Positions 36,803 to 36,877 of a DNA stretch of 64,000 nt are shown here, one piece after another. Each line of letters opens with the position of its first letter. Position 1 is the stretch's first letter. The stretch is from Escherichia coli (GTDB lineage: Bacteria > Pseudomonadota > Gammaproteobacteria > Enterobacterales > Enterobacteriaceae). A model generated the notes under the pieces. It saw nothing but the letters and a program-made list of their open reading frames with translations. It searched no databases and was not told the origin of the DNA. Position numbers and translations under genes: made by a program. The stretch lies in the NCBI RefSeq assembly GCF_003334305.1, contig NZ_QOWS01000013.1. One strand, given 5' to 3'.

Positions 36803-36877
36803 ACAGCTCACTTTGTTACCGATTAATCTTTAATACTGCATTAAAGAGTAGTTAAAGTTGTTAACAAAGTGAGCTGT
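36803..36877. repeat. 75-bp palindromic element: perfect 16-bp terminal inverted repeats with an inner sub-palindrome, abutting the yhbW start
   Basis: ACAGCTCACTTTGTTA at 36803-36818 is the exact reverse complement of TAACAAAGTGAGCTGT at 36862-36877; inner TCTTTAAT...ATTAAAGA. Confidence 0.8.

Follow-up and report, generated by a model that had tools for sequence, protein, structure and literature searches.

Inverted repeat at the yhbW start codon

The window (the whole 64-kb stretch of E. coli DNA that was analysed) carries ubiV and yhbW one behind the other on its minus strand, with a long inverted repeat and an ERIC/IRU element between them. The features of this region are listed below in window coordinates (SD, Shine–Dalgarno).

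35794–36801, minus strand: yhbW coding sequence, the regulated gene (luciferase-like monooxygenase, PF00296)
36803–36818, minus strand: 3′ arm of the predicted RNA hairpin (ACAGCTCACTTTGTTA; mRNA sense, UAACAAAGUGAGCUGU), which holds the SD-like GUGAG and ends 1 nt before the AUG
36827–36847, minus strand: apical stem-loop of the long hairpin (UCUUUAAU-GCAGU-AUUAAAGA), with a predicted −10 element on the same DNA
36862–36877, minus strand: 5′ arm of the predicted RNA hairpin, the putative anti-SD strand (TAACAAAGTGAGCTGT; mRNA sense, ACAGCUCACUUUGUUA)
36876–37000, no strand assigned: strain-polymorphic ERIC/IRU element that separates the 5′ arm from the ubiV stop codon and lies outside the conserved device
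37007–37903, minus strand: ubiV (yhbV), last gene of the ubiUV operon and the presumed source of read-through RNA carrying both arms

An inverted-repeat search of the window showed that the arms (36803–36818 and 36862–36877) are complementary at 16 of 16 positions with 43 nt between them, and that they enclose an inner palindrome (TCTTTAAT, 36827–36834; ATTAAAGA, 36840–36847). This confirms the original prediction of a perfect 16-bp repeat with a second palindrome inside, ending one base before the yhbW start codon: the single base 36802 separates the 3′ arm from the AUG (36801–36799), and GUGAG (36811–36807) lies within that arm, 5 nt from the AUG. No other perfect inverted repeat in the 64-kb window reaches 14 bp when loops are limited to 150 nt; the chance expectation per window is 0.03 repeats at 14 bp and 0 at 16 bp (first-order Markov randomisations). 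The universal core of the arms comprises 13–14 bp, (A)GCTCACTTTGTTA/TAACAAAGTGAGC(T). The sequence immediately past the 3′ arm is CUGUUAUGACUG, and no intrinsic terminator (G+C-rich stem and U-tract) was called in the intergenic region.

The 75-bp unit occupies one locus per genome in 5424 of the 5426 complete E. coli genomes searched; a tally of ‘2 places’ for the unit probably reflects its palindromic arms matching in both orientations. A miniature inverted-repeat element (MITE) or other dispersed repeat, proposed earlier as an alternative together with a search for further copies, is ruled out because the unit is single-copy.

Adjacent ERIC element and strain variation

The segment at 36876–37000 is intergenic, repeated (a 128-bp segment occurs at a median of 6 places per E. 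coli genome) and polymorphic for presence or absence, as is characteristic of ERIC/IRU elements, imperfect palindromes ~127 bp long that share a conserved core, and it contains an internal inverted repeat. Its core matches the ERIC1R and ERIC2 primer sequences. Of 5426 complete E. coli genomes, 1423 (26%) carry the element at the yhbW locus and about 74% lack it there. The 125-bp insertion supplies the outermost 2 nt of the 5′ arm (36876–36877, GT); ERIC-less alleles (K-12, O157 and ETEC) read ...GAGCTAT and pair over 14 perfect bp, followed by an A/C mismatch in DNA (U·G in the sense RNA) and one further pair. The 75-bp unit is older than the ERIC insertion. Insertions abut the arm in several lineages—ERIC in 26% of E. 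coli and also in E. albertii, and a REP-like element in Salmonella—and, as judged from the toleration of these insertions, the sequence upstream of the arm is dispensable. Among the three variant E. coli alleles examined, every difference falls outside the arms. In one E. coli isolate, the region has been turned into a perfect 81-bp palindrome.

Conservation and variation among genera

The 5′ arm is kept in about 15 enterobacterial genera, the arms persisting across loops of 43–161 nt, and the AUG lies 73–191 nt past the beginning of this arm. The hairpin begins 4–8 nt past the ubiV stop codon in most genera, and, of 49 distinct orthologous sequences, 48 place GUGAG 5 nt from the AUG. Genera that lack the 5′ arm still conserve the ACAAAGTGAG motif of the 3′ arm; among them, Providencia, Erwinia and Brenneria keep the SD motif, with an unpaired probability of 0.37–0.8.

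Variation within the arms differs between the two strands. For the 13-bp core in 21 sequences from about 15 genera, the cells that depart from Watson–Crick pairing comprise 13 wobbles and 17 mismatches when read on the sense strand, and 1 wobble and 29 mismatches when read on the antisense strand. In 34 further distinct sequences, the variable helix positions all vary by G·U or U·G, with 2 mismatched cells only. Mangrovibacter shows one double change (CUCGC/GCGAG), and the outer helix pair alternates between A-U and G-C across orthologues. Shuffling the alignment columns gave no significant covariation for the arms (86.0% paired versus 85.7% shuffled), the columns being too conserved; the case for RNA pairing is the strand asymmetry of wobble versus A·C, not this test. 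Because arm variation is almost entirely sense-strand G·U wobble, we infer pairing at the RNA level, and the confinement of wobble to the yhbW-sense strand points to the same. The cross-species variation behaves like that of a sense-strand RNA helix, in line with the earlier proposal of a hairpin on the yhbW mRNA strand. In the apical stem, one pair covaries from A-U to C-G in 7 of 34 sequences; as read from the alignment, this is selection on RNA containing the central box, which fits a read-through RNA and a full-length 5′ UTR equally. The inner palindrome is broken in Salmonella.

Predicted folding and SD occlusion

Computed folding gave the hairpin a minimum free energy of −29 to −31 kcal/mol (z = −4.1 to −4.7). 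When an RNA carries both arms, the computed probability that the SD is paired is about 0.999 and opening it costs 19–22 kcal/mol, whereas RNA beginning at the predicted start (described below) leaves it unpaired with a probability of about 0.8 and an opening cost of about 5 kcal/mol; K. pneumoniae RNAs gave the same contrast. Pairing of the SD or start codon in transcripts derived from upstream, the hallmark of transcript-specific occlusion of a ribosome-binding site, is thus, for the SD, what the computation returns. Folding at 30, 37 and 42 °C, proposed along with the original prediction, revealed no temperature-dependent melting: the computed probability of an unpaired SD in the both-arm RNA was 0.000–0.001 at all three temperatures. 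A thermosensor is ruled out because the SD stays buried and nothing melts between 30 and 42 °C.

No family in Rfam 15 was matched by the window region or by nine orthologous loci; the best scores were a chance-level mir-1285 for the repeat (25 bits versus a gathering score of 56) and V_AS5-like for the ERIC element (38.8 versus 96). Translational coupling to ubiV termination was also considered and is unlikely: judging by the distances in the sequence and the standard footprint of a ribosome, one positioned at the ubiV stop codon would extend into just the outer 3–4 bp of the stem, and ERIC or REP insertions abolish the proximity in many strains.

Regulation of ubiUV and yhbW

The ubiUV operon is under FNR control (PMC10470549; PMC3688515), and the FNR regulon paper gives the operon as yhbUV only (PMC3688515). 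A terminator scan called no intrinsic terminator between ubiV and yhbW. In Erwinia and Brenneria, a hairpin with a T-rich tail is visible by eye after ubiV; the scan called neither. Because it missed these candidates, we place little weight on an alternation of ‘terminator or hairpin’ among genera.

yhbW belongs to the mar/sox/rob regulon and is induced by vanillin, about 13-fold at the mRNA level and 77-fold at the protein level (PMC6561319). A K. pneumoniae fragment is bound by RamA and shows 6.9-fold activation in vitro (PMC4310594); this fragment starts 41 bp upstream of the 5′ arm, which leaves no room there for an activator-dependent promoter. In E. coli, the sole in vivo MarA ChIP-seq peak near yhbW lies inside ubiV (PMC5684230), about 750 bp upstream and in reverse orientation, and a MarA site at this position could drive a long-leader transcript that holds the whole hairpin.

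Candidate promoter within the repeat

Three promoter-like features were placed within or across the repeat.

36860–36874, minus strand: marbox-like 15-mer (GCTCACTTTGTTAAC), overlapping the 5′ arm and forward relative to yhbW; candidate MarA/SoxS/Rob (RamA) class II site
36833–36838, minus strand: predicted −10 element CAGTAT (CAnTAT in orthologues), within the conserved central box TTTAATGCAnTATTAAAG
36825–36828, minus strand: predicted start of the stress-inducible yhbW mRNA, ~24–27 nt upstream of the AUG and between the arms, placed from the −10 element and equivalent to K-12 3,303,422–3,303,425

On a position weight matrix (PWM) built from 33 MarA ChIP-seq sites, GCTCACTTTGTTAAC scores 8.3 bits, ranking 56th among the 127,972 15-mers of the window (top 0.05%); the match is moderate, beating 5 of the 33 MarA ChIP sites. 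The same 15-mer is the best PWM site in the K. pneumoniae fragment used for RamA EMSA/IVT. The longer sequence ATAGCTCACTTTGTTAACA has 3 mismatches to the 20-mer marbox consensus AYnGCACnnWnnRYYAAAYn, a quality of match of which ~5.6 are expected by chance per 3–3.1 kb, and RE1 of the candidate reads GCTC (consensus, GCAC). The same matrix gives the 3′ arm, read in reverse orientation, 3.8 bits for the E. coli sequence and 5.6 bits for that of K. pneumoniae.

The marbox-like 15-mer stands 21 nt from CAnTAT in 46 of the 49 distinct sequences, across a spacer of divergent sequence, whereas 14 different distances, between 13 and 131 nt, separate CAnTAT from the 3′ arm. In class II promoters, the marbox overlaps the −35 element and has its centre between about −36 and −55, most often near −41. 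If CAnTAT is the −10 element, the candidate marbox is centred at about −41, as is the class II RamA site of micF (PMC8811837). CAGTAT matches 3 of the 6 positions of TATAAT and a good −35 element is absent; a generic sigma-70 scan of the intergenic region on the yhbW strand called no promoter. TTTAAT was rejected as the −10 element, its position 2 never being A in any orthologue. In genera with a long leader (see below), a conserved hairpin begins exactly at the predicted start position. Tenebrionibacter keeps both boxes though yhbW is not downstream of ubiV, with a box-to-CAnTAT spacing 11 nt shorter. The supplements of Kim 2012 (searched by gene name and coordinates), of a 2025 MarA paper and of a 2023 paper on Salmonella MarA/SoxS/Rob/RamA make no mention of yhbW, and no experimentally mapped start was found.

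The marbox score, the fixed 21 nt and the variable 3′ side suggest a class II mar/sox/rob/RamA promoter within the repeat. Transcription of yhbW probably starts within the repeat as well, which the original prediction had itself named as an observation that would count against it. Because the predicted start falls between the arms, the hairpin would be absent from the stress-induced yhbW mRNA. The claim that the hairpin occludes yhbW initiation is accordingly narrowed: computed SD burial upholds it for RNA with both arms, but the stress-induced mRNA probably lacks the structure. The suggestion of a paired operator for a dimeric regulator survives in part. One arm is probably a protein site, with a monomeric activator as the candidate, but a symmetric pair is unlikely: half-sites of a palindromic operator lie at a fixed, short distance, and the arms here lie 43–161 nt apart. 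MarA-family proteins bind asymmetric sites as monomers (PMC8811837).

Proposed silencing of read-through and alternatives

We tentatively favour, at a little under an even chance, a reading in which the hairpin silences anaerobic read-through from ubiUV while a stress transcript that starts between the arms is translatable. The yhbW-sense RNA would form a long hairpin in which a basal 14–16-bp helix joins an anti-SD just past the ubiV stop codon to the yhbW SD region; transcripts entering from upstream would carry both arms, fold and fail to initiate yhbW translation. Their likely source would be read-through from the FNR-activated anaerobic ubiUV operon, which lacks an intrinsic terminator, and the untranslated yhbW message would probably be ended by Rho and then trimmed back to the hairpin. 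The 5′ arm would also serve MarA/SoxS/Rob, or RamA in Klebsiella and Salmonella, as a forward class II marbox, and the central box would provide the CAnTAT −10 element, transcription beginning ~25 nt before the AUG. Because such a start omits the anti-SD arm, the stress-induced mRNA would have an open ribosome-binding site. The device would shield an O2-dependent, stress-induced enzyme from the anaerobic operon upstream of it. Control of this kind is known; for yhbW, it has not previously been described. Set against this reading are the only moderate marbox, the lack of a promoter call, the MarA peak in ubiV and the Tenebrionibacter exception.

In an arrangement that extends the original proposal, the whole hairpin would lie in the 5′ UTR of the main yhbW mRNA, which would start upstream of the repeat (for example, at a MarA class I promoter in ubiV), and would hold translation low until a small RNA, a helicase, RNase III cleavage or a ligand opened it. 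The very strong computed occlusion, the RNA-type helix variation with its covarying apical stem and an intergenic region without a canonical promoter call agree with such a leader. However, an opening cost of 19–22 kcal/mol makes a 77-fold protein induction hard to achieve, the hairpin stays closed at 30–42 °C, no Rfam family matches, no more than 41 bp of the RamA-responsive K. pneumoniae fragment lie upstream of the arm, and ERIC or REP insertions immediately upstream are tolerated; RNA alone also leaves unexplained why 21 nt are fixed on the 5′ side when 13–131 nt occur on the 3′ side. We consider this arrangement unlikely. Less probable again is that the hairpin serves mainly the ubiUV mRNA, as a 3′-end stabiliser against exonucleases or as an RNase III/RNase E site that splits ubiUV from yhbW, SD occlusion being a by-product. 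Such a role would suit the absence of an intrinsic terminator past ubiV, a hairpin 4–8 nt from the ubiV stop codon in most genera, the long near-continuous structure (as for RNase III substrates or protective 3′ hairpins) and the annotation of the operon as yhbUV only, but a stabiliser needs no SD of the next gene as its 3′ arm, and in every genus a single nucleotide separates that arm from the AUG; moreover, ERIC or REP elements put >100 nt between hairpin and ubiV in many strains, and the Tenebrionibacter boxes are kept without ubiV upstream. This role is compatible with silencing of read-through, not exclusive of it.

We regard as very improbable a purely DNA-level element, in which the arms would be inverted copies of one protein site (two marboxes, or half-sites of a looping repressor) and their complementarity would follow from site identity. 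Marbox-like sequence is present on both arms (8.3 bits on the 5′ arm; 3.8 and 5.6 bits on the reversed 3′ arm in E. coli and K. pneumoniae, respectively), yhbW is strongly inducible and the central box is an AT-rich palindrome. Arm distances of 43–161 nt nevertheless show no helical phasing, wobble compatibility on one strand (13 versus 1 cells) is not predicted by DNA recognition, the RE2 half of the 3′ arm copy is poor, the MarA ChIP-seq peak is located elsewhere and MarA-family proteins act as monomers on asymmetric sites (PMC8811837). Equally hard to credit is a repeat without selected function—a quasipalindrome left by template switching or a relic of a mobile element (MITE- or ERIC-associated), tolerated as the gene has its own promoter. 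The perfect 81-bp palindrome of one E. coli isolate indicates that template-switch events occur at the region, and an ERIC element adjoins the repeat. Yet the repeat is single-copy in 5424 of 5426 genomes and is found with or without ERIC, its arms are kept in about 15 genera despite diverging spacers and flanks, all differences in the three variant E. coli alleles lie outside the arms, and a one-strand wobble bias would be unexpected for a neutral relic.

Leader sequences in Klebsiella and relatives

A leader of ~80 nt precedes yhbW in Klebsiella, Kluyvera, Cronobacter, Franconibacter, Atlantibacter and others. It contains a covarying apical hairpin and an invariant GGAAGAAGACCUUCAAUCUGAUGAC tract, and it may stabilise the 5′ end or act as a sensor; its absence from E. 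coli, Salmonella and Citrobacter would be due to loss. All 72 of its 72 metagenome matches lie upstream of yhbW, and a dispersed repeat was rejected on this count. Two small open reading frames were judged not to be coding: Salmonella and Cronobacter have lost the central-box mini-ORF ATG-CAG-TAT-TAA, and a 27-codon ORF in the Klebsiella leader has variable starts (ATG, GTG, TTG, ACG, TCG and CCG), a frame that differs between genera and length changes that are not multiples of 3. It is doubtful, in our estimation, that a marbox has been co-opted as an anti-SD strand, the same 15 nt serving as DNA for stress activation and as RNA for translational shut-off of transcripts from the anaerobic neighbour, and that the Klebsiella-type ~80-nt leader is an undescribed cis-acting RNA.

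Implications

Few members of the mar/sox/rob/RamA regulon are induced as strongly as yhbW (with vanillin, 77-fold at the protein level). If the hairpin silences read-through and a stress promoter lies inside it, this would explain how an O2-dependent enzyme encoded 80 bp behind an anaerobic operon, with no terminator between them, can respond to its own stress signal alone. The locus would then be a rare chromosomal case of the promoter-inside-inhibitory-hairpin logic known from T4 and IS10, with the added twist that activator site and anti-SD fall on identical nucleotides. In practice, constructs or fusions that include the ubiV-proximal arm would be translationally silent, and start-site and ChIP data for yhbW would have to be interpreted as two transcript classes. 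A locus-specific leader RNA of Klebsiella and its relatives, so far uncatalogued, is a further outcome of the analysis.

Comparison with known systems

RNA thermometers (ROSE and FourU) and riboswitch platforms likewise place a hairpin on the SD in cis. The yhbW helix is far too stable by comparison, and the E. coli region has no conserved aptamer-like junction and no Rfam match. ERIC/IRU and REP elements are also imperfect palindromes in transcribed intergenic regions, whereas the 75-bp yhbW unit is without a second copy in 5424 genomes.

The class II mar/sox/rob (RamA) promoters micF, lpxC P2 and lpxL P1 have a forward marbox over the −35 region, centred at about −41, and a weak intrinsic −35 element (PMC8811837, PMC12052159). 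yhbW resembles them as a documented regulon member on whose K. pneumoniae fragment RamA acts directly, and differs in its RE1 (GCTC), its moderate PWM score and the position of the E. coli MarA peak in ubiV. We know of no marbox reported to double as an anti-SD RNA segment.

In fold-back inhibition of IS10/Tn10, reportedly described by Davis, Simons and Kleckner in 1985, the transposase gene is said to be protected from external promoters. Transcripts from outside IS10 pair the inverted repeat with the ribosome-binding site, and transcripts from its own promoter begin within that repeat and can be translated. Unlike the mobile, multi-copy IS10, the yhbW repeat occurs once per genome and is inherited vertically in Enterobacteriaceae.

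Similar in layout are phage T4 gene e (lysozyme) and I-TevI, in which early read-through RNA hides the SD and AUG in a stem-loop and a late promoter lies inside the hairpin DNA, so that the late mRNA, without the 5′ strand of the stem, is well translated (PMC3014915). The yhbW region has the same predicted layout. It differs in belonging to a chromosomal housekeeping or stress gene rather than a phage gene, in its predicted sigma-70 class II activator-dependent promoter instead of a gp55 late promoter, and in that the candidate activator site itself appears to be the anti-SD sequence.

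An inverted repeat at the yhbW start codon

A repeat search of the window bore out the original prediction of a perfect 16-bp inverted repeat ending 1 base before the yhbW start: the arms are complementary at 16/16 positions with a spacing of 43 nt, and an inner palindrome (TCTTTAAT/ATTAAAGA) lies between them. On the yhbW mRNA strand, the last base of the 3′ arm (36818–36803) is 1 nt ahead of the AUG, and the arm contains GUGAG, 5 nt from the AUG. Across the whole 64-kb window, no other perfect inverted repeat with a loop of ≤150 nt reaches 14 bp (0.03 expected in randomised sequence). 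Like ubiV, ubiU lies upstream of yhbW on the same strand, and mtr is convergent from the other side.

35794–36801, minus strand: yhbW, ORF for a luciferase-like monooxygenase
36803–36818: 3′ arm, holding the Shine–Dalgarno sequence (SD)
36862–36877: 5′ arm, anti-SD on the yhbW-sense strand
36876–37000: ERIC/IRU element (125 bp) between the ubiV stop codon and the repeat, adjoining the outer arm
37007–37903, minus strand: ubiV, upstream of yhbW

A miniature inverted-repeat element had been offered as an alternative, and further genomic copies were to be sought; in 5424 of 5426 genomes, the 75-bp unit is found at a single locus, and this alternative was rejected. Of 5426 complete E. coli genomes, 1423 have the ERIC element at the ubiV–yhbW locus (K-12, O157 and ETEC do not); it recurs at ~6 places per genome. 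The two outermost bases of the 'perfect' arm come from it. ERIC-less strains have a ubiV–yhbW spacer of 80 bp, nearly all of it repeat, and their outer arm reads ...GAGCTAT, so where the window has 16 perfect pairs, these strains have 14, followed by a U·G wobble (sense RNA) and one further pair. The element is incidental to the repeat device. ERIC lies directly upstream of the arm in E. coli and E. albertii, as does a REP-like insertion in Salmonella, and all sequence upstream of the 5′ arm is replaceable, one of the observations that place a promoter inside the repeat. The S. enterica insertion (L084:519–620, an orthologous upstream locus) is REP/BIME-like and palindromic (GCCGGGTGGCGGC...GCCTGATAAGCGTAGCGCCATCAGGC); like ERIC in E. 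coli, it separates the ubiV stop from the 5′ arm and takes up the corresponding position. Salmonella also has a central palindrome that is broken in its right half (TATGACAAG).

Conservation as a probable RNA helix

Orthologous yhbW upstream regions were drawn from a species-level genome scan, exact-protein look-ups and a metagenome scan. Both arms were found in Escherichia, Citrobacter, Salmonella, Enterobacter, Klebsiella, Kluyvera, Cronobacter, Franconibacter, Atlantibacter, Buttiauxella, Pluralibacter, Superficieibacter, Mangrovibacter, Entomohabitans and Tenebrionibacter, with inter-arm loops of 43–161 nt. Within E. coli, three variant alleles, O157 and ETEC differ only outside the arms. 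The hairpin region of E. coli isolate 602 (NZ_OW968111.1, L002:401–481) is now a perfect 81-bp palindrome (40-nt arms, 1-nt centre; CAGTAT changed to CAGCAT and the leader rewritten), which looks like a quasipalindrome (template-switch) correction.

In a register-fixed alignment of the arms of 21 sequences, the 13-bp core read as yhbW-sense RNA gave 13 G·U/U·G cells and 17 mismatches, versus 1 wobble and 29 mismatches for the antisense strand. Variation in 34 further distinct sequences was again wobble, with only 2 mismatched cells: one pair is U·G in 25/34 sequences, G·U occurs at four other pairs, and two inner pairs switch jointly from C-G/A-U to U·G/G·U. The outer pair is A-U in some orthologues and G-C in others. 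Covariation across Enterobacteriaceae had been put forward as a check: the Mangrovibacter arms have a double change (CUCGC/GCGAG), and a column shuffle of the arms was not significant because the columns are almost invariant. The argument for RNA therefore rests on wobble asymmetry and helix persistence: wobble-preserving transitions on the sense strand are common and the equally likely transitions giving A·C are nearly absent, and the helix persists despite widely differing loop lengths. These patterns favour a sense-strand RNA helix over a pair of protein sites on DNA, the latter being in our view very improbable. An A-U to C-G covariation in the apical stem indicates that RNA containing the central box (the conserved segment between the arms) is under selection, which would be satisfied by read-through RNA and also by a full-length 5′ UTR.

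Computed occlusion of the ribosome-binding site

Computed folding upheld the proposed occlusion. With both arms in the RNA, the SD has a pairing probability of ~0.999 at 30, 37 and 42 °C, and opening −15 to +5 costs 19–22 kcal/mol; the K. pneumoniae two-arm RNA behaves in the same way. The SD stays closed over this temperature range, and an RNA thermometer was rejected. The terminator scan rejected the repeat structure as an intrinsic terminator, and no Rfam family matched the repeat or the orthologous leaders. Providencia, Erwinia and Brenneria lack the 5′ arm and keep the ribosome-site motif ACAAAGUGAG in an open state. Post-ubiV hairpins with T-rich tails were seen by eye in Erwinia (L011:1380–1420, GCGCGCT..AGCGCGCGTTTCC) and Brenneria (L012:1340–1390, GGGCAG..CTGCCCATTTATTTTT); neither was called by the terminator scan. 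The hairpin and its SD-occluding potential are real and under selection.

A predicted promoter inside the repeat

yhbW belongs to the mar/sox/rob/RamA regulon, with vanillin raising the protein 77-fold and the mRNA ~13-fold (PMC6561319), and a K. pneumoniae yhbW fragment is shifted by purified RamA, which raises its transcription 6.9-fold (PMC4310594). yhbW has an inducible promoter of its own. Primers of the RamA fragment (PMC4310594), mapped onto a K. pneumoniae locus, show it to extend just 41 bp beyond the 5′ arm, leaving no room upstream of the arm for an activator-dependent promoter. With a PWM from 33 MarA ChIP-seq sites (PMC5684230), the best site within the fragment is GCTCACTTTGTTAAC in the 5′ arm, a candidate marbox (MarA/SoxS/Rob/RamA site) in forward orientation and only a moderate match (8.3 bits, rank 56/127,972 in the window). 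Its distance to CAnTAT in the central box (CAGTAT, 36833–36838, minus strand) is 21 nt in 46/49 distinct sequences with free spacer sequence, whereas 14 different spacings (13–131 nt) separate CAnTAT from the 3′ arm. Fixed upstream and free downstream distances would be expected of an activator site, a −10 and a transcribed leader, and would not be expected of a symmetric RNA structure. With CAnTAT taken as the −10, the candidate marbox is centred at ~−41, like the class II RamA site of micF (PMC8811837). Several independent observations support this promoter inside the repeat, with a start predicted at ~36825–36828, and RNA from that start has an SD computed to be ~80% unpaired. No experimentally mapped yhbW start site was found in the published data searched.

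10389–10403 (minus), 27105–27119 (plus), 48831–48845 (minus) and 57056–57070 (plus): the window's four top PWM matches (13.0–15.1 bits), candidate marboxes near other genes
37690–37704, plus strand: candidate marbox in ubiV, one-mismatch homologue (GCACAATCTGCTTGC) of the ETEC MarA ChIP-seq-peak marbox

The central box also holds a mini-ORF (36830–36841, minus strand; ATG CAG TAT TAA, M-Q-Y-stop) whose second codon differs at its third position among genera (CAG, CAA, CAC, CAT). Since the stop codon is lost in Salmonella and Cronobacter, a functional leader peptide is improbable. In Tenebrionibacter (L094:600–700), a divergent ccdA-like gene rather than ubiV lies upstream of yhbW; both boxes (5′ and central) are kept, and the spacing between them is shorter by 11 nt (one helical turn). 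Boxes without an upstream ubiV and the shorter spacing count against the internal-promoter reading.

Many genera carry a locus-specific non-coding leader of ~77–87 nt between the central box and the 3′ arm (K. pneumoniae L095:812–890; also L097, L003, L008, L086, L087, L090, L091 and metagenome L099–L170), composed of CAGCUUUUCUGG, a variable hairpin and then CCAGGCUGGAAGAAGACCUUCAAUCUGAUGAC, in which the apical hairpin covaries and a GGAAGAAGACCUUCAAUCUGAUGAC tract is invariant. E. coli, E. hormaechei, Salmonella and Citrobacter lack this leader; exact metagenome matches lie upstream of yhbW in 72/72 cases, and Rfam gave no match. Its 5′ edge coincides with the predicted start site, and it would fold as a 5′-terminal hairpin from such a start.

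Proposed mechanism and alternatives

ubiUV is activated by FNR at low oxygen (PMC10470549), and the FNR regulon paper gives the operon as yhbUV only (PMC3688515). No terminator was called between ubiV and yhbW by the terminator scan. Run-on transcripts from ubiV would carry both arms, fold and leave yhbW untranslated; Rho would then plausibly terminate transcription, with the RNA trimmed as far as the hairpin. In response to oxidative or xenobiotic stress, MarA, SoxS, Rob or RamA would bind the 5′-arm DNA, and an activator-driven start between the arms would yield a translated yhbW mRNA. We put forward this combination of read-through silencing and an internal stress start tentatively, at somewhat under an even chance.

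The original prediction placed the hairpin in the principal yhbW 5′ UTR, which we consider unlikely: the RamA fragment reaches only 41 bp beyond the arm and the asymmetric spacing is unlike a symmetric RNA structure, although the apical covariation fits a full-length 5′ UTR too and a generic promoter scan called nothing on the yhbW strand. The sole in vivo MarA ChIP-seq peak near yhbW (ETEC H10407) lies inside ubiV/yhbV, ~750 bp upstream in reverse orientation (PMC5684230), and this ubiV-internal site could drive a long-leader yhbW transcript. Its homologue at 37690–37704 is oriented opposite to ubiV and yhbW; in this strain, which carries the ERIC, it precedes the yhbW ATG by ~890 bp, and it might direct transcription from an intragenic class I promoter or in antisense. 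A hairpin that mainly stabilises or processes ubiUV mRNA, which overlaps with silencing of read-through, seems rather improbable, and a repeat without function highly so. The original observation is upheld and its interpretation upheld in part: the hairpin and its occluding potential stand, and most likely the hairpin acts on read-through transcripts, not on the stress-induced yhbW mRNA with its start predicted between the arms.

The proposed layout resembles IS10 fold-back inhibition, in which outside transcripts are occluded and the element's own internal-start transcript is translated. It is also like T4 gene e and I-TevI, for which occluded upstream transcripts and a translated internal start are documented (PMC3014915); if silencing of read-through is correct, the yhbW repeat would be a further case of an already known type of control.
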